Origin: Marispirochaeta sp.
Lineage (GTDB): Bacteria; Spirochaetota; Spirochaetia; JC444; Marispirochaetaceae
DNA: 64,000 nucleotides
Direction: 5' to 3'
Assembly: GCA_963676835.2 (NCBI GenBank)
Contig: CAXXFF010000002.1
Span: 864,001 to 928,000 of the forward strand
A program made the translations under genes and the position numbers. A model generated the notes under the pieces. The model was not told where the DNA came from, made no database searches, and was given only the letters and a program-made list of their open reading frames with translations. Shown piece after piece: positions 23,673 to 45,666 of the stretch (positions are counted from its first letter, which is position 1; every line of letters begins with the position of its first letter).

Positions 23673-23759
23673 TCATTCCATTTTGTACTTGTAATGATAG
23701 GTAATTCTATTCCAAATTGAAAGTCCTTTCAGTATATATTACTAAGATTATTATAAAAT

Positions 23760-23771
23760 GCCCAGGTGTCC
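23760..23771 (+). promoter_or_regulatory. GGACA-N2-TGTCC box A (degenerate) upstream of the MFS gene
   Basis: GCCCA-GG-TGTCC followed by T-run; -10-like TATGGT 23 nt downstream (23795). Confidence 0.55.
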
Positions 23772-23834
23772 TTTTTTCTGCGGACCTTGATCTATATGGT
23801 ATACGCGAAGAAATCCTGTAAGGCGGAAGCAGAA

Positions 23835-25019
23835 ATGGCGTATATTGAACTGGGCACCCGGTCCCATAAACGGGCAACCCTGGGAATCAGCCTGGGAAGC
23901 ATGATTACCTTTGCAATTATGTACAGCCCCCAGCCCCTGATAAGCGTATTTTCCGCCGAGTATGGAGTTGCTCCGGCAACTGCGAGCCTTTCTGTTTCGC
24001 TGACAACCTTCGGGCTGGCGGGGGCGCTCTTTTTTATTGCCATTATAACCAATGTCTTTTCCCGTAAAGGCTTAATGTGCTTTTCCCTGATTGTATCTTC
24101 CAGCTTGACTCTGCTCTCCGCCTTTATGATGGATTTTACCGTCTTTCTGGGATTCCGCCTTTTAATCGGCATTGTTGTAGCCGGTTTTCCCTCTGTTGCC
24201 ATGGCCTATCTGTACGAGGAGTTTTCGCCTGAGGATCTGGGCAAGGTTATCGGGTATTATGTCTCCGGTACCGCATTGGGAGGACTCTCCGGGCGGATAG
24301 TGGTTGGCGCCCTGTCTGATTTTATGAGTTTTCACCTGGCCTTTGCCATTCAGGGCGTGCTCAGTCTTGCAGTGAGTATCTGGTTTCTGGTCTCCCTTCC
24401 GCCTTCAAAGAATCATGTGCAGAAAAAAATAACCCGCAAAGAGTGGTTTGCAGGTATTTCAGCTGCCTTCGGCAGTAAAGGCCTGGTGCCGGTATATCTG
24501 GTGGGATTTCTTATTATGGGTTCCTATATCAGTATCCTTAACTATATCGGCTACCCCCTCACTTCTGCTCCCTATAACCTCAGTCAGACTCTGTTCGGTT
24601 TTCTCTTTGTGGTGAACCTCTTCGGGTCATACAGCTCGGTGCTTTTCGGCAAGCTGGCAGACCGCTATCCAAGGCCCATGGTTATGTCCATAGCTCTGGG
24701 GGTAATTGCTCTGGGGGTTGGTGCAACCCTGCATCCCTGGCTTCCCGTCAAGATTGCTGGCGTAGCAGCAGTTGCTTTCGGCCTTTTTGCCGGGCACTCC
24801 GTTGCCAGCGGCTGGACCGGGATACTGGCTCCAAAAGAGTACAAGGGGCAGGCTTCCGCTTTTTATCTGCTCTTCTACTACGCCGGATCAAGTATTCTCG
24901 GCTGGGCTGGTGGCTTGTTTTTCCGGCAGTATGACTGGCTTGGACTCACTCTTTATATATTTACCCTCTTAAGCATGACTCTGGGGATTACCTTTCTCTT
25001 TCTGAGAAACAGAAGATAA
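23835..25019 (+). CDS. MFS transporter (YnfM-like)
   Basis: FAIMYSPQPL, AMAYLYEE, YVSGTALGGLSGR and YLLFYYAGSS; about 12 TM helices. Confidence 0.85.
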   Translation: MAYIELGTRSHKRATLGISLGSMITFAIMYSPQPLISVFSAEYGVAPATASLSVSLTTFGLAGALFFIAIITNVFSRKGLMCFSLIVSSSLTLLSAFMMDFTVFLGFRLLIGIVVAGFPSVAMAYLYEEFSPEDLGKVIGYYVSGTALGGLSGRIVVGALSDFMSFHLAFAIQGVLSLAVSIWFLVSLPPSKNHVQKKITRKEWFAGISAAFGSKGLVPVYLVGFLIMGSYISILNYIGYPLTSAPYNLSQTLFGFLFVVNLFGSYSSVLFGKLADRYPRPMVMSIALGVIALGVGATLHPWLPVKIAGVAAVAFGLFAGHSVASGWTGILAPKEYKGQASAFYLLFYYAGSSILGWAGGLFFRQYDWLGLTLYIFTLLSMTLGITFLFLRNRR

Positions 25020-25022
25020 AGG

Positions 25023-25034
25023 GGACAGGTGTCC
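25023..25034 (+). promoter_or_regulatory. GGACA-N2-TGTCC box B upstream of yjjI
   Basis: Perfect GGACA-GG-TGTCC; TATAGT 24 nt downstream (25059). Confidence 0.75.
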
Positions 25035-25126
25035 TTTCATCTGACTGTTTTACTTGCCTATAGTTAAAAGTAATGCAGAATCTAATGGAGAAAAAAGGTG
25101 CATCCACAGAAGGGAGGATAGTGCGT

Positions 25127-26641
25127 ATGAATGAAGCGCTGAAAATTGTAACATCCCGAAACTTTACAACTCGACAGAAAATGACCCAGCTTGCCGCAGT
25201 GGGAGAAAACTCTGTTTCTCCCATGAAGGTACCTGAAAAGTTCCGCTTTTATGCAGATAAGGGTGCACTATGTGATATGAACGAGGGGAATGCGCCCTAT
25301 CGCCCGCGTTATGTTCTGCCGGATTATCAGAAGTTTCTCGATCAGGGCAGCAGTTTTCTGCGTCTGGACCCGCCGAAGGATCTGGATGAGGCCCTCAATG
25401 CTTTAAGTATTATCTATCATCATGTTCCCTCAATTACCGGCATGCCTGTATATGTGGGAGCCCTCGATACTCTGATTGATCCCTTTCTTGAGGGTGTTGA
25501 TGATGCGGAAGCAGCCAAAAAAATCAGTCTGTTTCTCAATTTTATCGACCGGACCATTCCCAGCGGATACTGTCACGCCAATATCGGGCCGGAAGATACC
25601 AGGGCTGGCAGGATTATCCTTTCCCTTGCTCCGGAACTGAAAAACGCTGTACCCAACATTACCATGAAGTATGATCCTGACATTACTCCCGATGATTTTG
25701 CTGAATCCGCCATGGGTTCTGCCATGGTCTGTGCCGGGCCTGCGGTATGTAATCATGCTGTGCATAAAGAGACCTATACCGGCAGGTACGGGGTTGTCAG
25801 CTGTTATAATATTCTCCCCGAAGCAGGCGGTGCCTATTGTCTTTCCCGTATCGTGCTCCCCCGTCTTGCGGAGATGGCGGAAAACCATTCACATTTTCTC
25901 TCCACTCTTCTCCCGGATGCGCTGAATGCTCTCGGAGAATATATGAATGAGCGTATCCGCTTCTTTGTTGAGGAGTCGGGATTTTTCGAAAGTTCCTTTC
26001 TTGTAGATGAAGGGTTAATCAGTACAGACCGTTTTATAGGTATGTTCGGTCTTGCAGGGCTTGCGGACTGTGTAAATATCCTGCTTGGAAGAGAAATGGG
26101 CTACGGCGGCGATGAAGAAGGGGATAATCTGGCGGAAACCATTCTGTCGGAAATTGCGGTTTTTGCCGCGAATTTTGAGGCTCCCTATTCGCCGGTATCC
26201 GGAGGGCATCATATGCTCCACGCTCAGGCGGGGCTTGCCACCGATGAAGGGGTTTCTCCTGGAATCCGCATCCGGGTAGGAGAAGAGCCGGAATCTCTTT
26301 TCAAGCATCTGCGGCACAGTGCCAGAATGCACAAATATATCCCCACCGGCTGTTCGGATATTTTTCCTGTGGAAAGTACCGCCGGTAAAAACCCTGCGGC
26401 CCTGGTTGATGTGATCAAAGGGGCATTTTCCGTGGGCGATAAATACCTCAGCTTCTACGCTTCCGATGGAGATCTGGTGCGTATTACCGGCTACCTTGCC
26501 AAGCGCAGTGAGATTGACCGCTTTAAGGACGGCACAGCTGTTCTGCACGACACAGTTGCAGGAGCGTCACTGAACTATAAAAATAACCGGGTGGGCCAGC
26601 GTAAAGTCCGTACACAGAATGATCTCGGCTCCGGTAAATAA
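25127..26641 (+). CDS. yjjI: YjjI-family glycyl radical enzyme
   Basis: CDMNEGNAPYRPRY, YHHVPSIT, HANIGP, SCYN (Cys loop) and C-terminal DLVRITGY (Gly loop). Start at ATG 25127 after GGAGG. Confidence 0.88.
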   Translation: MNEALKIVTSRNFTTRQKMTQLAAVGENSVSPMKVPEKFRFYADKGALCDMNEGNAPYRPRYVLPDYQKFLDQGSSFLRLDPPKDLDEALNALSIIYHHVPSITGMPVYVGALDTLIDPFLEGVDDAEAAKKISLFLNFIDRTIPSGYCHANIGPEDTRAGRIILSLAPELKNAVPNITMKYDPDITPDDFAESAMGSAMVCAGPAVCNHAVHKETYTGRYGVVSCYNILPEAGGAYCLSRIVLPRLAEMAENHSHFLSTLLPDALNALGEYMNERIRFFVEESGFFESSFLVDEGLISTDRFIGMFGLAGLADCVNILLGREMGYGGDEEGDNLAETILSEIAVFAANFEAPYSPVSGGHHMLHAQAGLATDEGVSPGIRIRVGEEPESLFKHLRHSARMHKYIPTGCSDIFPVESTAGKNPAALVDVIKGAFSVGDKYLSFYASDGDLVRITGYLAKRSEIDRFKDGTAVLHDTVAGASLNYKNNRVGQRKVRTQNDLGSGK

Positions 26642-27455
26642 GATCATACCGTTCAGTCTGGTCGATGGCCCGGGCAGCAGAACGGCAGTTTTTCTGCAGG
26701 GCTGCAATCTTATGTGTTCCTATTGCCATAATCCTGAAACCAGAACAATCTGCAACAACTGCGGTATCTGTGTTTCTCACTGCCCTTCCGGGGCTTTGGA
26801 GATGCAGGAGGGCACCGTTCTCTGGAACGAAGATCTTTGCACCGGCTGTGACCGCTGTATTTCCCTCTGTCACAACTCAGCATCTCCACGGGTTCGCCGT
26901 ATGAGTTCCGGTGAAGTGCTTGCCCTTGTGGAGGAGAACATTCCCTTTATCCGGGGAATTACTGTTTCCGGCGGTGAATGTACCCTCTATCCGGATTTTC
27001 TGGTTGAACTGTTTTCCGGAGCCCGTCAGTTTGGTCTGGGGACCCTGATAGACAGCAACGGAACGGTGGACTTTACCCTGTACCCCCATCTGTTTGAGAA
27101 CCTCTGTGACGGGGTTATGCTGGATGTTAAGAGCTGGGACGGAGATCTCTTTTTCTCTCTTACCCGGGGAAGCAATTCCATGATTCGCAGAAATCTCCGT
27201 TATCTTGCAGATATTCAGAAGCTTGAGGAGATCCGGATTGTATGTATTCAGGAGCTTACGGATCCCGAACGGGCGGTTGAAGAGATAGGCGCTGCCATAG
27301 GCGATAAGCTGCATCAGCAGCGATTGAAACTGATTCAGTACAGAGATCACGGGGTTAAGGATCTGATTAACGCCCGGGGATATTCTATTCCTCAGTTGGA
27401 ATCCCTTGCCCTGCGTGCATCTGATATGGGATTCGGCGAGGTTATTATACAGTAG
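26619..27455 (+). CDS. yjjW: YjjW-family glycyl radical activating enzyme
   Basis: DGPGSR, GCNLMCSYCHNPE (CxxxCxxC), two ferredoxin CxxCxxCxxxC motifs and GITVSGGEC. Confidence 0.9.
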   Translation: MISAPVNKIIPFSLVDGPGSRTAVFLQGCNLMCSYCHNPETRTICNNCGICVSHCPSGALEMQEGTVLWNEDLCTGCDRCISLCHNSASPRVRRMSSGEVLALVEENIPFIRGITVSGGECTLYPDFLVELFSGARQFGLGTLIDSNGTVDFTLYPHLFENLCDGVMLDVKSWDGDLFFSLTRGSNSMIRRNLRYLADIQKLEEIRIVCIQELTDPERAVEEIGAAIGDKLHQQRLKLIQYRDHGVKDLINARGYSIPQLESLALRASDMGFGEVIIQ

Positions 27456-27469
27456 AGGAGCATATTGCA

Positions 27470-28288
27470 ATGATCCATTGTCAGGCGAACTTTTTTTCCA
27501 AAATACTTATGAACCATGTTGATGTGGATGTGCTTCTGCCGTCCATGCCGGATAACGATATTCTGTTTAATGATCTGAGTACGGTTTATCCCAAAGGCTG
27601 CGAGCATCCGGTGCTGTATCTCCTGCATGGTGCGCTTGAGGATCATTCCAGCTGGCTCCGGCAGACCTGTGTGGAACGCTATGCAGAGCATGCCGGTATT
27701 GCGGTGGTAATGGCTTCCGCCCAGAACGGGTTTTATGCAAACGCAAGGCAGGGACATGCCTATTTCGATTTCTTTACAAAAGAGCTTCCCGATTTTATAG
27801 CCTATACCTTCCCGGTTTCCCGCCGCAGGGAGGATACCTTTGTGGCCGGCGCCTCAATGGGCGGCTATGGTGCAGCGAAACTGGCTCTCAGCTGTCCTGA
27901 GTCCTATTCGTCCTTCGGCTGCTTTTCCGGTGCTGTTGATCCGGAGAAGCTTGAAAGCAAAATGGTAAGTCAGGGTTATGATGTTTTTCGCTACGATCTT
28001 ATTTTCGGCGGGGCATCCAAGGTTACCGGGAGCAGTGATGACCTTAAAGTACTGGCTGCATCCCTTGCAGATTCCGACATAAAGCCCGATGCCTTTGTTA
28101 CCTGCGGTCTGGAAGAGGCCAACAATTATGAGATGGTCAGTGAGTTCCGCGATGTTCTGGTCAAATCGGGTTTTCAGGTTCGTTTTACCGATGGGCACGG
28201 AGAGCATGACTGGGATTACTGGGAACGGTGTATTGCCCTCTACATGGAACATCTGGCCCATATTATTGATCAGGGAAAGGCTGTATGA
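27470..28288 (+). CDS. Alpha/beta-hydrolase esterase (tributyrin esterase / S-formylglutathione hydrolase-like)
   Basis: VLYLLHG, GASMGGYGA nucleophile elbow and GEHDWDYW. Confidence 0.85.
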   Translation: MIHCQANFFSKILMNHVDVDVLLPSMPDNDILFNDLSTVYPKGCEHPVLYLLHGALEDHSSWLRQTCVERYAEHAGIAVVMASAQNGFYANARQGHAYFDFFTKELPDFIAYTFPVSRRREDTFVAGASMGGYGAAKLALSCPESYSSFGCFSGAVDPEKLESKMVSQGYDVFRYDLIFGGASKVTGSSDDLKVLAASLADSDIKPDAFVTCGLEEANNYEMVSEFRDVLVKSGFQVRFTDGHGEHDWDYWERCIALYMEHLAHIIDQGKAV

Positions 28289-29601
28289 AAGAAGATCTTG
28301 TGAAAAAGGGCAAAATGACAGAAGTTTCCATTCCCTGGCTTGATGGAACCCGAACGATTGAAATTGATGAAGCGCTTATCAGGTTTATAGCCACCCCCAA
28401 TAATCCTGCTGCAGTTTCTGATCCCGATGCCGAGATTCTTGATGCCCTTAGAAATCCTGTAAAGTCTCCCGGCCTTAAAACCCTGATCGGGGATCCTGAA
28501 GGGAAGAAAGTTGCAGTTGTTATTGATGACAACACCAGGGTAACACCGGTGGAACGGGTTCTTACCGTTCTTGTCAAGGAGCTCGAAGTTCTGGGTGTCA
28601 GTCCCGAACAGGTTGTGGTGATCCTCGCCCTGGGCAGTCACCGTTATATGACCCCCGATGAAATCCGCAAGCGTGTAGGCGACTGGTGTTATGAACGGGT
28701 GTCCGTAATTAATCATGAATACAAGGATCCTGCAGAACTGGTGGATCTGGGAAAAACATCTCAGGGGACTCCGGTAATCATAAACAGGGTTTTCTATGAG
28801 AGTGATGTACGGCTCTGTATCGGGAATATAATTCCCCAGTTTATTGCCGGATGGTCCGGAGGGGCCAAGATCATTCAGCCGGGAATATCCGGAGCGGATA
28901 CAACTGCCCGGGTGCATCTGAACGGTTCTCTTACCTGGCCGAAGCGTCTTGGAAATGCCGAGAATGATATCCGCCATGATATGGAGGAGATTGCCGAACG
29001 GGCGGGGCTTCAGTTTATTATCAATACCATTCTGAACCTTGATGAAGATATCTATCGGGTTGTCGCCGGGGATGTTGTATCTGCCCACAGAAAAGGGGTG
29101 GAGTATGCAAAAGAGATCTACCAGCTGATTATCCCTGAACAGGCAGATATTGTTATTGCCGGCTCCTATCCGGCCAACAAGGATATGTGGCAGGCCGATA
29201 AAGGACTTGCAGCAGCGGTTCTGACGGTTAAACCCGGTAAGACGGTAATCTGGGCTGCTCCCTGTGTGGAGGGTGTAAGCCCGGAGCACCCCATCCTGCT
29301 TGAGCTTAAAGATACCCCGCCCCGGAAGGTATTTGATATGTGTGAGAACGGAGAAATCGATGATGTGGTGGGGGCCACCGCCCACATTATGATCGGGGTT
29401 ATGCGCGAAATGGCCAATGTGATCCTGGTGAGCGACGGAGTGTCCCGGAAGGAGTGTGAATCCATGGGAATATCCTGGGCTCCTAACCTCGAAACAGCTC
29501 TTAAGGATGCCCGGGCACGGGAAGGGGAAGCTGCCGGTATAGGTGTTATCACCCATGGTGCAGACCTGGCACCTCTGGTGGAGAACTCTTCTGTAAACTG
29601 A
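28285..29601 (+). CDS. LarA-family (nickel-pincer cofactor) racemase/epimerase homologue
   Basis: DDNTR, ALGSHR, AGWSGGAK, GDVVSAH and YP...D..QA.K motifs. Confidence 0.82.
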   Translation: MKEDLVKKGKMTEVSIPWLDGTRTIEIDEALIRFIATPNNPAAVSDPDAEILDALRNPVKSPGLKTLIGDPEGKKVAVVIDDNTRVTPVERVLTVLVKELEVLGVSPEQVVVILALGSHRYMTPDEIRKRVGDWCYERVSVINHEYKDPAELVDLGKTSQGTPVIINRVFYESDVRLCIGNIIPQFIAGWSGGAKIIQPGISGADTTARVHLNGSLTWPKRLGNAENDIRHDMEEIAERAGLQFIINTILNLDEDIYRVVAGDVVSAHRKGVEYAKEIYQLIIPEQADIVIAGSYPANKDMWQADKGLAAAVLTVKPGKTVIWAAPCVEGVSPEHPILLELKDTPPRKVFDMCENGEIDDVVGATAHIMIGVMREMANVILVSDGVSRKECESMGISWAPNLETALKDARAREGEAAGIGVITHGADLAPLVENSSVN

Positions 29602-29664
29602 TTTCCGGGTGTGACAATTTCAAAGAAATATAAAAAAAATTATGAAATAAATAATCACCGCAAG

Positions 29665-29676
29665 GGTCATTTGTCC
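29665..29676 (+). promoter_or_regulatory. GGACA-N2-TGTCC box C upstream of the TudS-like operon
   Basis: GGTCA-TT-TGTCC followed by T-run; TACTAT 23 nt downstream (29700). Confidence 0.72.
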
Positions 29677-29773
29677 TTTTTATTAAAAATCTAAGTGTCT
29701 ACTATTTCTTCAGAATCCGGCGGGAAGTCTTTACAGGACAGCCGCCGGAGGTCAGTGAGAGGAGGGATAGGGA

Positions 29774-30349
29774 ATGTCTTTGCATAAAGAGGATGCCAGA
29801 AGCGGCAAAGTAGTATTTGTCGCTAATTGTCTGCTGAATGCCAACAACAAAGTCCTTGAGCAGGCCCGCTACAAGGGAATGTTTTCCGAGGTGGTGGCTT
29901 CTCTGGACAAGCTTGGTCTGGGAGTAATGCAGATGCCCTGTCCCGAAACCCTCCACCTGGGTAACCAGCGCTGGTGGACCAGCAGAAACCTTTATGACAA
30001 CCCGGGATACCGGAAGCTCTGCCGGAAGATTGCGGACCAGATGGCTGACTATCTGGAAAGCTACCGCAATATCGGCTATCAGGTTCCGGCAATCCTAACC
30101 TGTGACGGTTCACCTTCCTGCGGCATTACCTGCTCCAGCTACTGCGAAGACTGGGGCGGCCGGCCCAAGGAGATACCCCGGACTCTTGTAAATAAACCGG
30201 GTGTTTTTATTGAAGAGTTGATGAGTGTAGTCAGTGAACGGGGACTTGAGTGTCCCTATATCTATGGTCTGAAAATGGATGACCATGGCGAGTCAAACGA
30301 ACAGATTATCAGGGATTTTGAAGACTTTCTGAAGAAAGAACTCAAGTGA
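29774..30349 (+). CDS. TudS/DUF523-related putative thiopyrimidine desulfidase
   Basis: NCLLN, MPCPE and GSPSCG Cys motifs typical of the [4Fe-4S] DUF523-like family. Confidence 0.72.
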   Translation: MSLHKEDARSGKVVFVANCLLNANNKVLEQARYKGMFSEVVASLDKLGLGVMQMPCPETLHLGNQRWWTSRNLYDNPGYRKLCRKIADQMADYLESYRNIGYQVPAILTCDGSPSCGITCSSYCEDWGGRPKEIPRTLVNKPGVFIEELMSVVSERGLECPYIYGLKMDDHGESNEQIIRDFEDFLKKELK

Positions 30350-30381
30350 AATCCTGATTTTAATAAGCATGGGAAACTAAA

Positions 30382-31581
30382 ATGAGCAACTTACTTAAGA
30401 CTAATTTTGCAGGTGTAGATTTACCAAACCCTTTTGTGCTGGCATCAGCGCCTCCGGCAACCAACCCGGAGATTATAGCCCGCAGTTTCGACCGCGGCTG
30501 GGGCGGGGCAATTATAAAAACTGTACAGTATACTCCCAGATGGACCAAAATAAACGTTACTCCCCGAATCCGTGCGGTTAAGGACAAGGGAAAAATCCTT
30601 GGCTTCACCAACTTTGAAATCGGCAGCCCCAAGACTCTGGATCAGTGGGCCGAAGGTATCCGCTGGCTGAAGGAGCGCTTTCCGGACCATGCGGTCTTCG
30701 GCAGTCTTATGCACACCGATGTTCTTAACGAGCATGAATGGCGGGAGGTTACCCGGATCTTTGATCAGGCCGGGGTGGACGGATTCGAGCTGAACCTTTC
30801 CTGCTCCCATGGACAGGCTGAGAGCGGTAACGGTGCAGCCCTGGGTGCCAATGCGGATATGGTGAAAATGGTAACCAGCTGGGTACGGGAAGAGACCAAA
30901 AAGCCGGTTATGCCGAAGCTCACCGCCCTTACCTTTGATGTTCCCGGAAAAGGGCTTGCCGCAAAAGAGGCCGGAGCAGATGCTCTTGCAGCTATTAACA
31001 CCTTAAGTTCCCTGCCGGGAATTGATATCGATACCTTCGCCCCCTACAGTACTGTAAACGGCCAGAGTGCATTTCAGGGACTGAGCGGAAGGGCTATCCG
31101 TCCCATTGCTCTTCGCTGTGTAGCCCAGCTTGCTGCAGCTACCGGACTGCCTATTTCCGCAACCGGCGGAGCCTACACCTGGCGGGACGCGGTTGAGTTT
31201 ATCCTCGCCGGAGCATCCACCATTCAGGTCTGTTCCGCTGTTATGGAATACGGTTACGGAATTATCGACAGTCTCAAAGAAGGGCTGGTGGATTACATGG
31301 AGACCAAGGGCTTCAAGTCCATCGATGATTTCTGCGGAAAAGCTCTGCCGAACATTACCAAACAGATAGAGCTCAGCCGGGATGTACGTCTTGCGGCGAA
31401 AGTTGATGCAGAACGCTGTGTGGGCTGCGGGCGCTGTGTAGACAGCTGTGCTGATAACGGTTACGGCGCAATCTGCATGGACGGAAAAAAGGCTGTGATA
31501 GATCCGGCAAAATGTGACGGCTGCGGACTCTGTACTCAGATATGTCCTGCATCCTGCATCACTATGACCGGAGCTAACTGA
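30382..31581 (+). CDS. preA: Dihydropyrimidine dehydrogenase PreA-like subunit with C-terminal ferredoxin domain
   Basis: NPFVLASAP, GWGGAIIKT, ELNLSCSHG, AINT, GLSG.AIRPIAL and two CxxCxxCxxxC motifs. Confidence 0.82.
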   Translation: MSNLLKTNFAGVDLPNPFVLASAPPATNPEIIARSFDRGWGGAIIKTVQYTPRWTKINVTPRIRAVKDKGKILGFTNFEIGSPKTLDQWAEGIRWLKERFPDHAVFGSLMHTDVLNEHEWREVTRIFDQAGVDGFELNLSCSHGQAESGNGAALGANADMVKMVTSWVREETKKPVMPKLTALTFDVPGKGLAAKEAGADALAAINTLSSLPGIDIDTFAPYSTVNGQSAFQGLSGRAIRPIALRCVAQLAAATGLPISATGGAYTWRDAVEFILAGASTIQVCSAVMEYGYGIIDSLKEGLVDYMETKGFKSIDDFCGKALPNITKQIELSRDVRLAAKVDAERCVGCGRCVDSCADNGYGAICMDGKKAVIDPAKCDGCGLCTQICPASCITMTGAN

Positions 31582-31589
31582 GGCGGTTT

Positions 31590-32987
31590 ATGAGAAGCGG
31601 CAACGATCTGAATCTTCTCAACGGAACTCTTATTTTTCCTGAAGCTGAAAGAACAGGAAGCATAGGCATTGCCGACGGGCTGATTACTCAGGTTGTAGAG
31701 AATGCAGAGGACCTGCTGCCCTCTTCCCGGGTAATTGATGCGGAAGGTATGCTTATCTTCCCGGGATTGATCGACTCCCATGTACACGTCCGGGGTGCCG
31801 GTTTCAGCTACCGGGAGGATTTCTCAAGCGGCTCCAGAGCTGCTGCTTCATCCGGTATTACCACCATTATGGAGATGCCCGGAACGGATATTCCCGCCAA
31901 TACTGCCGAACGCTTTCTGACACGTCTTGAAGAGGTGCGCCGGGACGGTGGAATCAGCTTTGCCATGTACGGTGCCGCCGGGGCGGACAACCTGAATGAG
32001 ATTGAGGGAATTGCCGCCGCTGGAGCCGTTGGATTCAAGACTTTTCAGATGGCGCCGGTCCCCGGAAGGGAGACCGAGTTCTACGGAATGTGTGCCGAAA
32101 CCTATGACGATCTGGTGGCTATTATGCAGCGGATTGCCCCCACCGGGCTTTCTCTTACTGTGCACTGCGAAAGCCAGGAGATAATCAACAGCAAAATGGC
32201 GGAGATCCGTGCCGCCGGCGGAAAAGACCTTATCGCATTCTGTGATTCACGGCCGCCGGAAGCCGAGACGGCTTCTGTCGATCTGGTTATTCGGGCGGCG
32301 GAGAAAACGGGCTGCAGAACGGTAATTGCCCACACAAGTACTCCCGAAGCGGTGGAAATGGTTCACGAGGCCAGGCTTCGGGGAGTGGAAGTCTACGTGG
32401 AAAGCTGTGCTCAGTACCTGAGCTTTGACAAAGAGCAGATGGCACCTCATGGAGTCTTTGCCCGGATGAAACCTCCTTTTCGGGACCGGGGCAGGGTTGA
32501 AAAACTGGCGGCTCTCTATAGTGCCGGAAAAATCGATATAACCGGAAGTGATCATGCTCCCCACACCCTGGAAGAGAAAACCAGGAATGGAGTGGATGAT
32601 ATATGGACCACCACCGACGGCCTTGCGGGACTTGAGATGACTTTTCCCATGCTCCTGAAACTGGTGGAGCAGGGAAAAATTTCCTACCGGTCCATTGCCG
32701 CATCGGCCAGTCAGAATACTGCGGAGTTTTTCAATCTTCCCTCCAAGGGGCGTATTGAAACAGGCAGGGATGCGGATCTGGTTCTGGTGTCTCTGGAAGA
32801 GAGAGAAACCGCTTTTGACAGAAACAGACTTCTGTGCAAATGCAGGGATGTCTGCCGAATCTACGAAGGCTTTTCCATGAAGCACAAAATTAACACAGTT
32901 ATAATCCACGGGAATGTTGCCCATTCTCATGGACAAACAGCAGACCGGAAGGGCTGCGCACAAATACTATTTCCGACTCAGAATTGA
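31590..32987 (+). CDS. Cyclic amidohydrolase (dihydroorotase/allantoinase family)
   Basis: IDSHVHVR, GITT..EMP, GFK, VHCE, AH, KPP.R, GSDHAPH and KGRI..G.DAD. Confidence 0.85.
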   Translation: MRSGNDLNLLNGTLIFPEAERTGSIGIADGLITQVVENAEDLLPSSRVIDAEGMLIFPGLIDSHVHVRGAGFSYREDFSSGSRAAASSGITTIMEMPGTDIPANTAERFLTRLEEVRRDGGISFAMYGAAGADNLNEIEGIAAAGAVGFKTFQMAPVPGRETEFYGMCAETYDDLVAIMQRIAPTGLSLTVHCESQEIINSKMAEIRAAGGKDLIAFCDSRPPEAETASVDLVIRAAEKTGCRTVIAHTSTPEAVEMVHEARLRGVEVYVESCAQYLSFDKEQMAPHGVFARMKPPFRDRGRVEKLAALYSAGKIDITGSDHAPHTLEEKTRNGVDDIWTTTDGLAGLEMTFPMLLKLVEQGKISYRSIAASASQNTAEFFNLPSKGRIETGRDADLVLVSLEERETAFDRNRLLCKCRDVCRIYEGFSMKHKINTVIIHGNVAHSHGQTADRKGCAQILFPTQN

Positions 32988-32999
32988 GCGGAGGAGGAT

Positions 33000-34391: not shown

Positions 34392-34400
34392 GGATTATAT

Positions 34401-39185: not shown

Positions 39186-39294
39186 AGGAATATATTATGC
39201 GTTGGGTAATAATTTGTCGAGCCTAAAGAAGGCATTGGGTACTTCTTGTGTATTCGAAGCACTGTAAAAGGTCTCTTTTTGCATGTTAAGGGTT

Positions 39295-39324
39295 AAAAAA
39301 ACCGCCCGGCGTAAACCGGGCGGT
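39295..39324 (-). terminator. Rho-independent terminator of the nitrilase-ABC operon
   Basis: ACCGCCCGG-cgtaaa-CCGGGCGGT with a U-run on the minus strand. Confidence 0.85.
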
Positions 39325-39349
39325 GTAAACAACTCTGTATCAGAGAGGC

Positions 39350-40372
39350 TTATTTTGTAGCTTCTTCCCAGATCTCTGTGGTGTAGAGCATATCCAGGGG
39401 AAGTTTCTCGGAGATAATGCCGTATTTTGCAGCAATATCTACGGTGTTCTGAATCTTGTCTGCATCGAAGTAGCCGATTTTCGCAGGATCAAATCCTTCG
39501 GGGCTTACTACAGTAGCAATCTTCTGAGACATACCGATCTGGTGCTCTTTTGTAGTGCTGGCCTGGTCGAGGCTTTTCCAGATGATGTCGGCAGCTGCAA
39601 GGGGATCTGCACAAGCATCGGCCCATCCCTTGATGGAAGCACGGAGGAACTTAACTGCAGTTTCCTTGTTTTCCGCAAGCCACTCGGAGTTAACCACAAG
39701 GCAGTCCTCGAGCATTCCGGTTCCTTCCTTGTTAACATCGATGATGTTCAGTTCGCTCTCAGGGTAACCGGACTCAACCAGTACCATGATTTCGTTGTAG
39801 ATCATACCGGAAGCTACATCGAGCTTGCCGCTGATAAGACCGTCCATGGTGTAGTCCTGTTTTGCCATAACTACGTCCTTGTCCTTGTCCATGCCGTATT
39901 TCTCGAGCATTGCATAGATGGGGTAGTCAGCTTTTCCGAGCCATGCACCGATAGTCTTGCCCTGGAGATCGGGAACGCTTTCGATTCCGTTCTTCTTGAA
40001 GGAAACAAGGCGGAAAGAGCTCTGCTGGAAGGTCTGTGCAATAGATACAAGGGGGAAGCCCTTTTCTACGAAGGGAAGCAGACCGTACATATTGATGATA
40101 CCGAAATCAGCTGCACCAACGGAAACCTGGTTTGCAGGGATAATGTCGGGACCGCCGGGAAGGAGTTTTACATCCAGTCCTTCTTCAGCATAATAACCTT
40201 TTTCAAGGGCTACATAGTAACCGTTGAACTGTGCCTGGGGCAGCCATTTCAGCTGCAGGCGTACTTCTACGGGGCCGTCGGCGCTTTCCTGGGAGCCATT
40301 GGCAAAAACAGATGTGGTTGCTGCCATTAGCATAGCAGCGGCGAACAGAAGAAACATGATTTTCTTGCTCAT
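39350..40372 (-). CDS. NMT1/THI5-like ABC substrate-binding protein (pyrimidine/nucleobase type)
   Basis: LQLKWLPQAQFNGYYVA..KGYY.EEGLDV, PGGPD and YNE motifs; signal peptide. Confidence 0.85.
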   Translation of the reverse strand: MSKKIMFLLFAAAMLMAATTSVFANGSQESADGPVEVRLQLKWLPQAQFNGYYVALEKGYYAEEGLDVKLLPGGPDIIPANQVSVGAADFGIINMYGLLPFVEKGFPLVSIAQTFQQSSFRLVSFKKNGIESVPDLQGKTIGAWLGKADYPIYAMLEKYGMDKDKDVVMAKQDYTMDGLISGKLDVASGMIYNEIMVLVESGYPESELNIIDVNKEGTGMLEDCLVVNSEWLAENKETAVKFLRASIKGWADACADPLAAADIIWKSLDQASTTKEHQIGMSQKIATVVSPEGFDPAKIGYFDADKIQNTVDIAAKYGIISEKLPLDMLYTTEIWEEATK

Positions 40373-40396
40373 AGTGTCATCCTCTCTCTTGATGAT

Positions 40397-41167
40397 TTAT
40401 CTTTGTGATGCATGCCACTTAATGGCATAGCGCTCAACCAAAATTATTAGGGTGTACATGGTTATTCCGAAGAATGCCGCTGTACCGATATATGCCCACG
40501 CCCGGGCCATCTGGGCCTGTTTCAGGGCGGTGGACAGTTCAAAGCCGATGCCGGCGAAGGAGGAGAAAAACTCACTACAGATCGCCGCAATCATGCTTGA
40601 TGTTGTACTTATTTTCAGCGCGGTAAGAATATTGGGAACCGCATTGGGCAGCCTGAGGTAAAAGAAGATCTCCTTCTTTGTGGCTGCGTAGGATTTCATA
40701 AGATCCAGGGAGAATGCCTTGAATACATTGAATCCGCGGTAGGCGTTTATTGCCATGGCTGCCATGGTAAAGACGGTTACAATGGCTATTTTTGAACCCA
40801 TTCCCATGCCGAACCAGTTATTCATTACCGGCGCCAGAGCGATGATGGGGATTGCATTGAATGCGGAAATAAGGGTAAGACCGCCGATTCCCCACACCGG
40901 GAAAAGGGTAGCAATTACTGCAATCATAAATCCCATACTGGAACCGAGCACCAGACCGATAAGTGCTTCCGCAACAGTAACGAGGCTGTGCCGCAGAATA
41001 ACGTCATACTCCTCGAAAAAGGTGGTCAGGATTTCCGACGGCACGGGTAGCTGGAACTTCCGCAGGTGCATCATCAGGTGTACTCCGCCTTTTTCCCACC
41101 AGAGGAAAAAGAGAACGCCGAAGAGTACGGGCAACAGAATATCGAAGAATTTTTCTACCTTGTTCAT
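40397..41167 (-). CDS. ABC permease (SsuC/TauC type)
   Basis: LP.PS.I, P.IALAP and LRLPNAVP motifs. Confidence 0.88.
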   Translation of the reverse strand: MNKVEKFFDILLPVLFGVLFFLWWEKGGVHLMMHLRKFQLPVPSEILTTFFEEYDVILRHSLVTVAEALIGLVLGSSMGFMIAVIATLFPVWGIGGLTLISAFNAIPIIALAPVMNNWFGMGMGSKIAIVTVFTMAAMAINAYRGFNVFKAFSLDLMKSYAATKKEIFFYLRLPNAVPNILTALKISTTSSMIAAICSEFFSSFAGIGFELSTALKQAQMARAWAYIGTAAFFGITMYTLIILVERYAIKWHASQR

Positions 41168-41169
41168 AA

Positions 41170-41976
41170 TCAGTTACCTCCCTCTTTTTTGGACAGTGCG
41201 CTTTCCCATGGCACCAGCAGTTTCTCAAGCAGCAGAACAAAGCCGAAAAAGCTCATCCCTAAAAGGGCTGCCATAATAACCGATGCCCAGAACAGATGGG
41301 TTCCGTTGGCACCGTAGTAGAGGGTGTAGAGAATCTTTACGCCGATGCCCTTGTCGGTACCTAACATTTCCACCAGAATCGCTGCAGTAATGGAACGGGG
41401 GGCAGCGATTTTCAGACCCACAAAGAGGTTGGGCAGGGTCGAAGGCAGCATCAGCTTGGTGAATACTTCCGGCTTGGTGGCAGCGTAGGAGTACATCAGG
41501 TCGATCTGATCTTTATCCACGCTCTTAAGCCCGCTCAGGGTGTTCACCGTAACAGGAAAGAAGGTAATAAAGGCGGCAATAATAACCCTGGCTGCATCGG
41601 GGCTGCGTACGATACTCCAGATAATCGGTGCCAGACCGAGGATCGGTATCATCTGGGAGATAATCACGTAGGGAAAAGTTACCTTCTCTAGGATCCGGTT
41701 GTAGCTCATGAAAACTGCAACCAGAAATCCGAAACATCCGCCAATCAGAAAGCCGAAGAATGCCTTGGACACGGTAACCAGTCCGGAATCAAGCAGAGAC
41801 CAGAGGTTTGCGATGAATGTGGCAACCACGGTGTGCAGAAAGGGAAGTTTCTGTTTTGCCATGGTGTCATGGATTACATCCTGAAGCAGCCAGGCTCCGG
41901 CTTCCCAGAGCAGAATAATTGCTGCAATCCACACCAGGGTGGTCAGCCATTTCTGGCTGCGGGCATTAATGACCAT
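41170..41976 (-). CDS. ABC permease (SsuC/TauC type)
   Basis: Q.IP...LAP, FFPVTVN..SGL and LP.LF.GLK. Start at 41976 after GGAGG. Confidence 0.88.
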   Translation of the reverse strand: MVINARSQKWLTTLVWIAAIILLWEAGAWLLQDVIHDTMAKQKLPFLHTVVATFIANLWSLLDSGLVTVSKAFFGFLIGGCFGFLVAVFMSYNRILEKVTFPYVIISQMIPILGLAPIIWSIVRSPDAARVIIAAFITFFPVTVNTLSGLKSVDKDQIDLMYSYAATKPEVFTKLMLPSTLPNLFVGLKIAAPRSITAAILVEMLGTDKGIGVKILYTLYYGANGTHLFWASVIMAALLGMSFFGFVLLLEKLLVPWESALSKKEGGN

Positions 41977-42784
41977 TCTCACCCTCCTCAAAGCTGTCAC
42001 GGATTTTTGCAACAAGAGAGTAAAACTCGGGACTATCCCGCATTTCAGCGGTTCTCGGCCGGGGCAGATCAATATCAATTACTGCAGAAAGACGTCCGGG
42101 GTGAGCGGAGAGAACAAATACCTTTTCCGAAAGAAATACTGACTCGGGAATGTTGTGGGTAACGAACAGGATTGTCTTTCCTGTCTTCTGCCAGATCTTC
42201 AGAAGGTCCTCGTTCAGCCGTTCCCGGGTAAACTCGTCCAGAGCGGAGAAAGGTTCGTCCATAAGAAGAATTTCAGGATCCATTGCCAGTGCCCGGGCAA
42301 TACCGACGCGCTGCTGCATTCCACCGGAAAGCTGGTAGGGATGCATATCGGCGCAATGGCTTAATCCCACGAGATCAAGCATTTCCATGGCACGCTCTTC
42401 CTGCTCCTGTTTCTTCCACTTGAGAAGTTCCAGGGGCAGGCAGATATTCTTTTTTACTGTTCGCCAGTCGTACAATACGGGATTCTGGAATACGATTCCA
42501 TACTGGTGCTCCAGTCGGATTTGCCGGGGAGTTTTACCGGAAATAGTAACAATCCCGGAGGTCGGCTTCAGCAGATCTGCGATGATTCTCAGGATGGTGG
42601 TCTTGCCGCAGCCGGAAGGGCCGAGGAGGCTGATGAATTCGCCATTGAGAATATCAAGACTTACACCGTTGAGAGCGGTTGTTACATCCCCATTATTGTT
42701 TGTGTACTTCATTTCAATATTTTTAAGGTGAATGTCGTCTTGTGCTTTCTCTTTTTTCATGGGTTCTGTGCTAACTGTGCTCAT
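41966..42784 (-). CDS. ABC ATP-binding protein (SsuB/TauB type)
   Basis: GPSGCGKT, LSGGMQQR, LMDEPFSALD and FVTH. Confidence 0.93.
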   Translation of the reverse strand: MSTVSTEPMKKEKAQDDIHLKNIEMKYTNNNGDVTTALNGVSLDILNGEFISLLGPSGCGKTTILRIIADLLKPTSGIVTISGKTPRQIRLEHQYGIVFQNPVLYDWRTVKKNICLPLELLKWKKQEQEERAMEMLDLVGLSHCADMHPYQLSGGMQQRVGIARALAMDPEILLMDEPFSALDEFTRERLNEDLLKIWQKTGKTILFVTHNIPESVFLSEKVFVLSAHPGRLSAVIDIDLPRPRTAEMRDSPEFYSLVAKIRDSFEEGENGH

Positions 42785-43718
42785 AACCTGACCTCGTGCT
42801 GAGATTTTTCCACTCCGGGCTGGAGAGGATTTCCTTGTACATTTTTACGTATAAATCCGGACGCCAGTCGGGCTCTCCGATTTTTTCATTATGTTTGAAC
42901 AGGTGGGTAAAGGTGTTGTGCTCCGAAAGGCTTAAATCGATGGATGCACTGTACATCTCATGGGAATCGCTCCCTTCTGCGTAAAAGGGGAAGCCGGCGA
43001 AGTATTTCACATCGCCGATGTTGCCTGCGGGGCCTGCTATACTGCTGCCGCCGATAAAGTAATTCTCCCTGTCCCATCCGGTGAGATTGGCGGAAGCAAC
43101 GTATATGGGGCTGGTAATTACCAGGGATTCCAGCTGGGTCTGAACCATTCTGCCTGGAACTGCTGATGCGCAGCAGGCAGTAGGGTTTATAAAAAGTCTG
43201 CAGCCTTTAGCCGATGCCCAGCGGACTATTTCGGGGAAGGCATAAAAGTCGTAACAGATCCCAATTCCCATCGGTCCCCAGGGGGTATCAAATACAGTCG
43301 GGTAATCACCTCTGGTGGCCCAGGTGGGTTCGTTCTCCGGGAGATGAAGCTTGCGGCAGCTGCTTATTGATCCGTCGGGAGAACAGATTGCTGCCGAGTT
43401 GTACACGGTGGCGGGATTATTTTTATCCTGCTCGGGCAGGCCGAAAACAACGTAGATGCCGTATTCTGCTGCCAGTTTTGAAACCGCAAGAGTTGATTCG
43501 CCCGGTACGGTTTCTGCCAGCCGGACATGCATTTTACTGTTGAACTCAACTTCCGGTTCCGGATCGTAGCCGGACAGAGCCAGTTCGGGAAGGATAATCA
43601 TATCGGAACCAGATCTGGCGGCAGCTTTCACATAACTGCAGATTCGTTCCAGATTGACTTCCCTGTTACCCCAGATTGCTCTGAAATTAACTACCGAAAG
43701 GTTGATCACATGTTCCAT
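42771..43718 (-). CDS. Carbon-nitrogen hydrolase (nitrilase superfamily)
   Basis: E-K-C triad: LPELA, RKLHL and ICYD. Start at 43718 after GGAGG. Confidence 0.88.
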   Translation of the reverse strand: MEHVINLSVVNFRAIWGNREVNLERICSYVKAAARSGSDMIILPELALSGYDPEPEVEFNSKMHVRLAETVPGESTLAVSKLAAEYGIYVVFGLPEQDKNNPATVYNSAAICSPDGSISSCRKLHLPENEPTWATRGDYPTVFDTPWGPMGIGICYDFYAFPEIVRWASAKGCRLFINPTACCASAVPGRMVQTQLESLVITSPIYVASANLTGWDRENYFIGGSSIAGPAGNIGDVKYFAGFPFYAEGSDSHEMYSASIDLSLSEHNTFTHLFKHNEKIGEPDWRPDLYVKMYKEILSSPEWKNLSTRSGYEHS

Positions 43719-43814
43719 ACGGACCCGGTTCCTCCAAGCATACATAAAGGTAGCCTTCCCGGCATTAACCTTCATTCAGGAACCGATACTATGGATTTGG
43801 GATTGCATTCAAAA

Positions 43815-43826
43815 GGACATGTGTCC
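43815..43826 (-). promoter_or_regulatory. GGACA-N2-TGTCC box D upstream of the nitrilase-ABC operon
   Basis: Perfect GGACA-TG-TGTCC; minus-strand TAGTAT (43791-43786) 23 nt away. Confidence 0.75.
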
Positions 43827-43926
43827 TGATTTATAAAAATATTTTACAAAAATGAAAATGAAAAATACCTTTAAGTATAATACTTGTAAAAAATATACGT
43901 AAATGTAAAAGATTTAAAAATTTAAC

Positions 43927-44637
43927 CTATAATTCAGCTTCTTCTATCATTGAAGAGAGTAAATCATACTGTTTTTGATTGATTGATATGTAGTGACCAT
44001 GCTGGGATATAACATTTTTCTTCTTCATTTTATTGATACAGCGGTTAACAGTTTTGACACTTATGCGGGTTTCATCGGCAAGCTGGTGCCGGGGGATCTT
44101 CAGAGTACATACCCCGTTAACCGATTGGGTCTCAAAATAATGGATAAACTGGTATGCCAGACGGATCTCTCCGGGAAAGAAGAGAAAGGTCCGGTCTTTT
44201 GATACCTGCCGGATAATGGTTTTGACGTAATTGGTAGTAAAGGTGAAAAGCGCTGAATTGCTTGCTTTCATCCACTGAATAAATTTATCCGCAGGAATTG
44301 AAATAAAATAGCAGCGGGTTTCGCACACTATTGATCCCCGGTAAAGGGGAATTTCGGCAAAGCATTCTGCGGCACCGATAAAGTGGGGAGGTTCCACCTT
44401 GTCGATGGTGTAGAGTATCCCGTTCTGCAGCTCATTTTCTATGCGTATTGTTCCTTCCAGGAGAATAATTACCGTATCACAGGGATCTCCGGAGTAGATA
44501 AGAAAGGAATCGGTTTCAGCTGAATCAAACTGGCTTGCCGAGGCGACGGCCGGGGGCATTGTATCAATCAGATTTGTGATAAAGACAGCGACTGATTTAC
44601 AGCGAATATGTGAAGCAGCTTTTGCCTTTAAATCCAT
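43927..44637 (-). CDS. Crp/Fnr-family transcriptional regulator
   Basis: cNMP-binding-like barrel (LLEG.I, FIG..E) and C-terminal HTH LADETRISVKTVNR. Confidence 0.85.
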   Translation of the reverse strand: MDLKAKAASHIRCKSVAVFITNLIDTMPPAVASASQFDSAETDSFLIYSGDPCDTVIILLEGTIRIENELQNGILYTIDKVEPPHFIGAAECFAEIPLYRGSIVCETRCYFISIPADKFIQWMKASNSALFTFTTNYVKTIIRQVSKDRTFLFFPGEIRLAYQFIHYFETQSVNGVCTLKIPRHQLADETRISVKTVNRCINKMKKKNVISQHGHYISINQKQYDLLSSMIEEAEL

Positions 44638-44716
44638 CCTGAGTGTTCCAACCTCGCTTCTAATTTAATCTTAACAAAAACAGGAGGAGATTACTACATC
44701 AGGATGGATTAACCGG

Positions 44717-45481
44717 CTATTTTGTCTCTTTTCCGATAACAATACGAAAGGCTTCGATGGCTGTTTTTATGGCCTGTTCCGTATCGGTTACCCGGATAAT
44801 GCCGCTGTTTTCCAGCATTTCCCGTTCCTTGTTCCGGCACAGGAGAAGAACTGTTGCACAGCGGACCCGAAGTACAGAAGCAACAATAAACAAAGTTGCA
44901 GATTCCATTTCCGAGGCTAACGCGCCGGCCCGTTTCCAGGCTTCCCATTTATAGAGCAGCTCTGGTGCAGTGGGCATCCGGTCGGGATTATGCTGTCCGT
45001 AATAGGAGTCCTTGCACTCAACAATGCCGGTAAAGCTTGGGTATTTCAACTTCTCCGCAGATTCAATAAGGGCGGAGACCAGTCCATGGTCGGCAACAGC
45101 GGGAAACTCAATGGGGACATACTCGTTGCCCGTACCGTCTTTGCGGATGGCTCCGGTGGGAATTATGAGGCTGCCGGGGTCTATGGTGCTGTCTATTGCA
45201 CCGCTTGTTCCTACACGGATAAAGGTATGGGCGCCGAGCATTACCAGCTCTTCCATGGCAATCGATGCCGAAGGTCCTCCGATTCCTGTACTGGTAACGC
45301 TAACCCGGGTGCCGTCGATGATGCCGGTATAGGTAACGTACTCTCTTTTTGTGGCTATATGCACAGGATTTTCGAGTTGTGCAGCGATCTGTTCTACTCT
45401 GCCGGGATCTCCGGTGAGAATAACATAGCCCCCGATTTCCCCTTTGGCGCAGCCTATGTGGTGCATTCGCTCTATGTCCAT
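44717..45481 (-). CDS. udp: Uridine phosphorylase
   Basis: GDPGRV, REY, STGIGGPSA.IA.EEL, IRVGTSG, KDSYYGQH and EMESA. Start moved to 45481. Confidence 0.88.
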   Translation of the reverse strand: MDIERMHHIGCAKGEIGGYVILTGDPGRVEQIAAQLENPVHIATKREYVTYTGIIDGTRVSVTSTGIGGPSASIAMEELVMLGAHTFIRVGTSGAIDSTIDPGSLIIPTGAIRKDGTGNEYVPIEFPAVADHGLVSALIESAEKLKYPSFTGIVECKDSYYGQHNPDRMPTAPELLYKWEAWKRAGALASEMESATLFIVASVLRVRCATVLLLCRNKEREMLENSGIIRVTDTEQAIKTAIEAFRIVIGKETK

Positions 45482-45578
45482 TTTTCCCAATACTCCAGAA
45501 TATGCGTTATTTTTTTGAAGAACTGAAAGTTCCTCAGCATGTATCAACAGTATAAAAGTGAAAAAAAGATTTGAAAAA

Positions 45579-45590
45579 GGCCATTTGACC
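45579..45590. promoter_or_regulatory. GGACA-N2-TGTCC box E in the divergent udp/ECF region
   Basis: AAAAA-GGCCA-TT-TGACC-TTTTT, with TACTTT 23 nt right (+) and TATACT 24 nt left (-). Confidence 0.7.
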
Positions 45591-45666
45591 TTTTTAGCCT
45601 GTTTGTTATACCGTACTTTCATTGCAGAATCTTCAAAAAATATCACTTGTAGGGAGAGGATTAACA

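Follow-up and report, generated by a model that had tools for sequence, protein, structure and literature searches.

Why should a catabolic locus carry the same short palindrome five times between its operons, and which protein would read it? The question is raised by a 64,000-nucleotide stretch of the Marispirochaeta sp. genome (assembly GCA_963676835.2; positions 864,001-928,000 of contig CAXXFF010000002.1, hereafter the window; the home genome, G000, is of 4.43 Mb). An initial annotation of this DNA had proposed that five palindromes of the form aaaGGACAnnTGTCCttt make up a regulon at class II activator spacing, served by a Crp/Fnr-family regulator, P0001, which is encoded among them. We consider it probable, from sequence comparison, that the regulator at 43927-44637 binds the aaaGGACAnnTGTCCttt sites as a dimer, acts as a class II activator when a signal derived from pyrimidine nucleosides is present, and regulates its own gene positively through the fifth site.

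A helix-peptide scan with one genome per species returned seven loci. One of these is in G002, a Marispirochaeta sp. of the same genus and the one related species having the locus, which is there about 80-84% identical in DNA. The other six loci (L007-L012) belong to two Oscillospiraceae, one Clostridia bacterium, one Selenomonadaceae and two Pectinatus, and a 22-bp position weight matrix (PWM) was trained solely on eight sites from these six foreign loci. The five window sites are given below with their score and genome rank under this foreign-trained PWM (MFS, major facilitator superfamily; ABC, ATP-binding cassette; ECF, energy-coupling factor).

23760..23771, no strand: site 1 (s1), GCCCAGGTGTCC, in the divergent gap between periplasmic-binding-protein/histidine-kinase genes (minus) and the MFS gene (plus); score 19.4, rank 5
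25023..25034, no strand: site 2 (s2), GGACAGGTGTCC, 3 nt past the MFS stop codon and 5' of the yjjI operon; score 19.3, rank 6; G002 copy identical
29665..29676, no strand: site 3 (s3), GGTCATTTGTCC, 5' of the operon that runs from a TudS-related gene to an M20 gene; score 22.1, rank 3; G002 copy identical
43815..43826, no strand: site 4 (s4), GGACATGTGTCC, with the end of the regulator gene on one side and the CN-hydrolase/ABC operon (minus) on the other; score 24.9, rank 2; G002 copy identical
45579..45590, no strand: site 5 (s5), GGCCATTTGACC, in the divergent gap between the udp-regulator pair (minus) and the ECF transporter operon (plus); score 28.1, rank 1; G002 copy identical

All five 12-mers stand where they had been reported and with the reported sequences, with 0, 0, 1, 2 and 2 mismatches to GGACANNTGTCC, and the sequence around them does have the A-rich left and T-rich right flanks described for it. 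They are also intergenic, as had been claimed, once the starts of the neighbouring genes are set by conservation or by family alignment (MFS gene 23836, yjjI 25127, udp 45481). The yjjI start is preceded by a ribosome-binding site, GGGAGGA, and the udp start is Met-63 of the longest open reading frame (ORF), in which the alignment to the Udp model begins at residue 69.

The sites are more than chance, and the case for this is carried by their rank with a flank-aware PWM, their conservation in G002, the specificity of their flanks and the weakness of the hairpins they could form (see below). With the foreign-trained PWM they rank 1, 2, 3, 5 and 6 among all positions of the 4.43-Mb genome, with scores from 28.1 to 19.3, so that the scan of the own genome proposed as a check in the initial annotation puts the window sites at the top. 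In G002 all five are found at aligned positions, the sole change being in the spacer of s1, from GG to GT, while the 23 nt from s1 to its -10 hexamer have largely diverged. A crude coding map, consisting of ATG-started ORFs of at least 120 aa, was used to pick non-coding core matches. There are 21 such matches with at most one mismatch in the genome; seven are copies of one repeat, and among the other 14 the aaa...ttt flanks are present only in the three that belong to the locus.

The initial annotation had also placed a TAnnnT hexamer 23 nt from the site (24 nt for s2 in the plus and s5 in the minus direction) in six named directions, and all six are found, together with a candidate for a seventh.

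23795..23800, plus: TATGGT, 23 nt past s1, predicted MFS promoter; G002 keeps 23 nt
25059..25064, plus: TATAGT, 24 nt past s2, predicted yjjI operon promoter; TACAGT at 24 nt in G002
29700..29705, plus: TACTAT, 23 nt past s3, predicted -10-like; kept in G002
43786..43791, minus: TAGTAT, 23 nt past s4, predicted -10-like; kept in G002
45614..45619, plus: TACTTT, 23 nt past s5, predicted ECF operon promoter; kept in G002
45549..45554, minus: TATACT, 24 nt past s5, predicted udp-regulator promoter; kept in G002
23731..23736, minus: TATACT, 23 nt past s1, doubtful candidate for a seventh direction, toward the binding-protein/kinase genes

The six spacings are all retained in G002. The hexamer of the seventh direction is lost there, an insertion of about 116 bp following, and a separate sigma-70-like pair lies at 23732-23704, near the minus direction of s1. 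If the hexamer is a -10 box (-12 to -7), the site would extend from -47 to -36 with its centre at -41.5. A run of T residues sits at the -35 position of the predicted promoters, and a consensus scan of positions 23000-36500, which cover sites 1-3, found no sigma-70-like -35/-10 pair at the predicted promoters. The best reading of this geometry is class II activation, in which a site centred at about -41.5 would replace the -35 box.

The same combination of regulator and site recurs in other genomes. In each of the six loci L007-L012 the regulator gene has a site with 0-2 core mismatches and like flanks no more than about 250 bp away, and both Pectinatus loci carry a further one. Profile searches found members of the regulator subfamily in 4 genomes when 301 from the order of L007 were searched, and in 47 out of 301 for the class of L011 (Negativicutes). 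Thirty-three further loci were scored with a matrix trained solely on the five sites of the window. The best match has at most two core mismatches in all 33, scores above the 95th percentile of shuffled loci (12.6) in 24, and in 30 is separated from the regulator gene by 37-182 bp (28 upstream, 2 just downstream). In total the regulator gene has a aaaGGACAnnTGTCCttt site no farther than about 250 bp away in 36 of the 39 homologous loci, which come from Oscillospiraceae, Clostridia and Negativicutes; together with the window they represent four distant lineages, the fourth being Spirochaetota. The proposal that the Crp/Fnr gene encodes the cognate regulator gains support from this, as subfamily and motif appear to travel together both in the first six loci (6/6) and in the further ones (30/33). 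No other transcription factor recurs in the nine loci that have annotated neighbours, the remaining 30 being annotated for regulator and udp only.

Pooling the 5 window sites, the 8 foreign sites and 32 new ones gives 45 sites, or 90 when both directions are counted. The TAnnnT hexamer is at offset 23 in 48 of the 90 directions and at offset 24 in 7, whereas any other offset from 0 to 44 is used 0-8 times; offset 23 or 24 is seen on at least one side of 43 of the 45 sites, and on both sides of 12. The 23-nt distance to a -10-like hexamer is thus sharply conserved, in line with the class II spacing that had been claimed. The 90 half-sites share the consensus aaaGGACAn, with G-6 in 81%, G-5 in 99%, A-4 in 80%, C-3 in 100% and A-2 in 92%, and with A in 59-83% at each position from -7 to -12. 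In the Selenomonadaceae locus (L010:9887-10001) the regulator gene has its own canonical promoter, TTGACA-17-AATAAT, 3' of the shared site, and the 23-nt hexamer is found in the udp direction only; because of this separate promoter autoregulation is not universal in the subfamily.

The genes that accompany the regulator point to a common theme, in that they would serve to take up pyrimidine nucleosides and bases and to break them down. In most cases the regulator gene has udp or another nucleoside gene as its neighbour, and a udp-like gene adjoins it in all of L007-L012. The order udp, regulator, site seen at s4 is also that of L007, L008, L020/L053 and L021/L054, with an NMT1-type ABC module after the site in L007, L053 and L054. 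In L007 and L008 an EamA transporter follows the site, and L007 also has MmgE/PrpD and NMT1-type ABC genes. In the two Negativicutes with the closest regulators (G404 and G577) udp, regulator and site are followed by MmgE/PrpD, NMT1-type ABC and then M20, PrpF or amidohydrolase genes. In L010-L012 udp, a uracil/xanthine permease gene, deoB and pdp are divergent from the regulator, in some with cdd and a 5'-nucleotidase gene, and the second site of L011 and L012 heads deoC-nupC. In G206 the site heads genes for a nucleobase permease and an amidohydrolase. Among 10 Negativicutes genomes without the regulator there was one Udp-like match, of 29% identity, and at this single locus the best PWM score was 6.9 versus a shuffled mean of 7.9. 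The Udp of the window is 61% identical to that of G404 and G577, whose regulators are the two strongest subfamily-profile matches in the Negativicutes search, and this suggests that the udp-regulator pair may have been transferred between phyla. Within the genus, regulator, yjjI and udp were found as a set in G000 and G002, whereas all three are missing from G001, G003, G004 and G005; the Marispirochaeta island is accessory.

The regulator itself is encoded as follows.

43927..44637, minus: Crp/Fnr-family regulator P0001, 236 aa, proposed cognate activator

Its N-terminal domain matches the Pfam family cNMP_binding (PF00027; 41.4 bits, cut-off 27.5) and its C-terminal domain HTH_Crp_2 (PF13545; 32.5 bits, cut-off 27). 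A profile of the subfamily matches E. coli CRP with E 1.5e-25 over residues 30-218, which takes in both domains. The AlphaFold model of P0001 (predicted local distance difference test, pLDDT, 89.8) has beta strands at 36-115 and, at 127-153, the long central helix that serves dimerisation in this family, and its best fold matches by Foldseek are GlxR, CRP, MtbCRP, Vfr, Clp and Clr, with probability 1.00. P0001 is a true member of the Crp/Fnr superfamily, though neither CRP, FNR, YeiL nor PrfA. No NCBIfam model claims it: it scores 30.8 bits with the CRP model NF008732, below the cut-off of 266, and has no match at E<=1e-5 to the YeiL model NF007707, for which three homologues reach 25.8 to 35.6 bits where 180 would be required. 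Neither does it match the FNR model at E<=1e-5. FNR has an N-terminal cysteine cluster for its [4Fe-4S] centre; the first 50 residues of P0001 hold a single Cys. PrfA was absent among the best 60 of 76 matches in the PDB at E<=0.001, which include the PrfA-like Lmo0753 at E 4.5e-9.

The subfamily is small and divergent and has its own recognition helix. When 1.84 billion representative sequences were searched exhaustively with phmmer, no more than 543 matches came up at E<=1e-3, the top one 41% identical, and a word-indexed homologue search returned the G002 orthologue only; a single copy of a P0001-type regulator was found in the genome. In an alignment of the 21 closest sequences the recognition helix S-(V/L)-K-T-(V/I)-(N/Q)-R is conserved. 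The profile aligns its lsvkTvnR with the csreTvgR of CRP, which agrees with the helix that the initial annotation had picked out. It had gone on to say that this helix differs from that of CRP and thereby fits a site with a short spacer. The difference in the helix stands, while the short spacer is no departure from the family, since the 5-N2-5 layout matches the PrfA box tTAACanntGTtAa as given in the excerpted text of PMC3443378.

Several observations weigh against the interpretation offered here. The bare core with at most two mismatches occurs 27 times in the window against 24.3 +/- 4.6 expected from shuffles, i.e., without enrichment; with at most one mismatch there are 3 matches versus 1.5 expected, and exact copies in the whole genome number 5, about what composition predicts. 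As the bare pattern is not enriched, s1 and s5, with two core mismatches each, are indistinguishable from chance by the core alone. Choosing sites by PWM inflates the figures for core conservation, yet not those for the -10 spacing. Among the 33 further loci are 3 whose best site lies over 1.2 kb away from the regulator gene. The genomes are also kin, Negativicutes above all, so that independent events are far fewer than 39 loci. The position of -41.5 is a prediction read off the -10-like hexamers. The residue aligned with Glu72 of CRP is Glu in most relatives and Ala in P0001 and P0003, and because it is Ala in P0001 no conclusion on the ligand is drawn. Lastly, a repressor bound over the -35 region would yield the same sequence picture as an activator.

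This last point is the substance of an alternative in which the same regulator and sites act in repression and a nucleoside-derived signal releases the regulator from the -35 region. Such a repressor would have the site where it needs it, overlying the -35 box position, and the best-known nucleoside regulators of E. coli, CytR and DeoR, are repressors. The predicted promoters, however, offer no recognisable -35 hexamer to occlude, only a T-run and no sigma-70-like pair, and activators that must contact RNA polymerase typically show a spacing held to a single base pair, as is seen here across phyla, whereas repressors do not need one. The precedent in the family is likewise for activation from -41.5, by PrfA and NtcA, as described in the excerpted texts (PMC3443378; PMC3898017), and we regard repression as unlikely, albeit worth keeping in mind.

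It is far less likely that the sites belong to a factor encoded elsewhere, or to promoters of an alternative sigma factor, with the Crp/Fnr gene a mere neighbour. Co-location of regulator and site is circumstantial and would allow this, but the Crp/Fnr subfamily gene is the sole recurring transcription factor in the nine annotated loci from four lineages, and its recognition helix is conserved in the subfamily together with the motif; the two-fold symmetry and the bidirectional use of s5 would moreover fit a dimeric helix-turn-helix protein, not a sigma factor. Finally, the succession of A-tract, stem and T-tract brings to mind weak bidirectional intrinsic terminators between operons, and s2, s3 and s4 do lie between co-directional genes with A-rich and T-rich flanks. 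The hairpins of the site RNAs are weak and no better than those of shuffles (-3.5 to -9.5 kcal/mol; z +0.14 to -1.37), the stem being 5 bp and the loop 2 nt as written. At s1 and s5, in divergent promoter regions, there is nothing to terminate; specific bases (G-5, C-3) are conserved, not pairing, and a 23-nt spacing to -10 boxes would be meaningless for a terminator. On folding energies and context this reading is rejected, and we give it hardly any credence. No known RNA families were found in the window.

Activation by the P0001 regulator thus remains the favoured interpretation, and its reach would extend beyond the five sites. These five are confirmed, but the regulon described in the initial annotation as having five sites likely has a sixth outside the window: rank 4 in the genome with the foreign-trained PWM is GGACACATGTCC at C3:741336-741347 (L013:4337-4348), just 5' of an EamA transporter gene, and C3:741336 is a likely sixth operator. 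In G002 this site has a spacer-only change inside diverged intergenic DNA, and three congeners without the regulator align over the neighbouring gene only, with no alignment over the EamA gene or the sixth site. The hexamer 23 nt from the site is TACTAC in G000 and TAATTT in G002, and in both species an in-frame ATG is found 7 nt after it, which suggests that the EamA mRNA may be leaderless. Compared with its EamA counterparts in L007 and L008 the protein has an identity of 22-23%, a resemblance at family level only.

Two other kinds of palindrome came up in the same genome. Rank 7, aaaaaGTCCATATGGACttttt at C2:1714638 (L014), lies between a DUF285 gene and prfC, has a different half-site, GTCCA, and may be a terminator or a site for another factor. 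The seven copies of one repeat with GGACACCTGTTC (gcaaaaacGGACACCTGTTCcggccgaa) are at C1:117, C2:478711, C2:1874050, C3:793, C3:16465, C3:524166 and C3:669381, some of them at contig ends; this repeat is unrelated to the regulon and probably belongs to a multi-copy element, for instance the flank of an rRNA operon.

The genes of the window that lie behind the five sites are as follows.

23836..25019, plus: MFS transporter, 3' of s1; Pfam MFS_1; start set by G002 conservation
25127..29601, plus: s2 operon; YjjI-family glycyl radical enzyme, radical-SAM activase, esterase and LarA-like nickel-pincer racemase homologue
29774..35627, plus: s3 operon; CD3072-family TudS-related protein, PreA/PydAc-like dihydropyrimidine dehydrogenase, cyclic amidohydrolase, MmgE/PrpD and M20 amidase
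39350..43775, minus: s4 operon; CN-hydrolase (beta-ureidopropionase-like) and ABC transporter with ATPase, two permeases and NMT1/THI5-like binding protein
44717..45481, minus: udp, uridine phosphorylase, first of the udp-regulator pair; TIGR01718, 280.8 bits, cut-off 280.3
45667..48839, plus: s5 plus operon; ECF transporter with CD3073-family S component, T component and two ATPases

In the minus direction of s5 udp is followed by the regulator gene. The YjjI assignment is supported by PF11230 and TIGR04040 (626.8 bits, cut-off 498.3), and the same operon has matches to Radical_SAM, Esterase and Lar_N/LarA_C. In the s3 operon the cyclic amidohydrolase is dihydropyrimidinase/allantoinase-like and the M20 amidase carbamoylase-like. 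The dihydropyrimidine dehydrogenase homologue at 30382-31581 has a flavin mononucleotide (FMN) domain and one ferredoxin domain, with no FAD/NADPH partner gene nearby. A ferredoxin-dependent PydAc type of dihydropyrimidine dehydrogenase has been described, and the enzyme of the window is alike in having FMN and one ferredoxin domain, as far as the excerpted text goes (PMC7332683). The Marispirochaeta island extends the common theme to the full reductive route plus several enzymes of unknown role.

The events that we envisage would start with a pyrimidine nucleoside or one of its breakdown products, sensed in the cyclic nucleoside monophosphate (cNMP)-type pocket of the regulator. A dimer of the regulator (43927-44637) would then bind the five aaaGGACAnnTGTCCttt palindromes as operators and activate from a centre at about -41.5, standing in for the -35 box. 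Uptake would be switched on through the MFS, NMT1-type ABC and ECF transporters, likely also through the unlinked EamA exporter/importer, and catabolism would be expected to run from uridine phosphorylase over the ferredoxin-type dihydropyrimidine dehydrogenase and the cyclic amidohydrolase to the carbamoylase or beta-ureidopropionase-like amidases. The regulon would also include enzymes of unknown role, namely the YjjI glycyl radical enzyme with its activase and the LarA-like, MmgE/PrpD-like and TudS-related proteins, while s5 would provide positive autoregulation of the udp-regulator pair.

The predicted placement of the sites is the class II arrangement of CRP, FNR, NtcA and PrfA. E. coli CRP is the best sequence match (E 1.5e-25) and among the best fold matches (Foldseek about 1e-15), and it has the same two-domain architecture. 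The consensus operator of CRP has A-rich and T-rich outer flanks, and in this the present sites resemble it; at class II promoters of CRP the site is centred near -41.5 and replaces the -35 box, as is predicted here. The differences are in the helix, where S-R-E-T-V-G-R of CRP compares with S-V-K-T-V-N-R of P0001 (Arg180 to Val, Glu181 to Lys), in the half-site, which is TGTGA with a 6-bp centre in CRP and GGACA with a 2-bp centre here, and in scope, since CRP is a global regulator and the present one local. YeiL of E. coli is a third Crp/Fnr member and is encoded beside nucleoside genes. It is divergent too, and some homologues of the present subfamily match its model weakly whereas P0001 does not; no YeiL operator was found in the literature examined. 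CytR and DeoR of E. coli and DeoR of B. subtilis control genes of the udp, deo, cdd and nupC type in response to nucleosides or deoxyribose-5-phosphate. They are functional analogues, but belong to unrelated families (LacI, DeoR), are repressors and use other operators. The CytR regulon has been treated by comparative genomics (excerpt of PMC3454398). In operator design the closer counterpart is PrfA of Listeria, likewise a dimeric Crp/Fnr activator (dimerisation and activation being predicted in the present case). Its box tTAACanntGTtAa, centred at -41.5, shares the ACAnnTGT core and the 2-bp centre, but has TA in the outer half-site where the present sites have GG (excerpt of PMC3443378), and its effector is given as glutathione (excerpt of PMC5359189). 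The PrfA regulon is one of virulence, the present one of nucleoside and pyrimidine catabolism.

The initial annotation did not recognise the motif as a described regulon. A full-text literature search, to which RegPrecise did not belong, likewise found no account of regulator, motif or regulon. The sequence GGACANNTGTCC turned up in the passages retrieved only as the site of LtmA, an unrelated cyclic di-GMP-responsive regulator of Mycobacterium smegmatis, and the main text of a survey of Crp/Fnr motifs (PMC3590769) contains no GGACA, TGTCC, udp, uridine or nucleoside. What emerges is a new subfamily of Crp/Fnr with a predicted operator and regulon of its own; the mechanism, class II activation by a Crp/Fnr dimer, would be a textbook one. 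The finding pairs a regulator subfamily with a DNA motif and target genes. As 47 of the 301 Negativicutes genomes sampled have the subfamily, which is less frequent in Oscillospirales and Marispirochaeta, genes for nucleoside and pyrimidine utilisation can now be predicted from sequence in these anaerobes.

YjjI deserves separate mention. The family was not found in five regulator-bearing Firmicutes genomes; YjjI as a general member of the regulon is thereby rejected, and its membership is specific to the Marispirochaeta island. Among the papers listed by literature searches for YjjI, none names it in title or abstract. In E. coli K-12 (4614680-4621602; L015) yjjI-yjjW is divergent from deoCABD, so that, counting the regulon of the window (25127-27455), genomic context ties YjjI to nucleoside catabolism in two separate cases. 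One may speculate, and we do so tentatively, that the regulator is a pyrimidine-nucleoside sensor that reuses a cyclic-nucleotide pocket, and that its regulon in this spirochaete marks out a branch, anaerobic and undescribed, in the breakdown of pyrimidines or modified nucleosides, in which YjjI would do its chemistry with the LarA-like racemase, the MmgE/PrpD-like enzyme and the TudS-related desulfidase, fed by the CD3073-type ECF transporter. If true, this would give the first testable substrate class for YjjI, which also adjoins deoCABD in E. coli. Having YjjI, the LarA-like and MmgE/PrpD-like proteins and the CD3072/CD3073 pair under one nucleoside-linked switch would narrow the search for their substrates.

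The putative CD3072-family TudS-related desulfidase (29774-30349) and the CD3073-family S component (45667-46287) are encoded 15 kb apart, each behind a palindrome, and the family names suggest that their genes are adjacent in C. difficile. This arrangement may be a hint that a thiolated base or nucleoside is imported and desulfurated. Between the two conserved halves of the island, at 35611-39349, lie about 3.7 kb with a HigB/HigA-like toxin-antitoxin pair, a gene with an FGE-sulfatase domain and a HEPN/nucleotidyltransferase pair; the corresponding stretch of G002 measures about 24 kb, which marks the place as a variable insertion spot. The genes beside s1, at 19281-23672, form a sensor module, which the lost minus-direction hexamer of s1 might have driven; they encode a periplasmic binding protein, a CHASE5/HisKA_2 kinase and a GGDEF protein that has a dCache domain.

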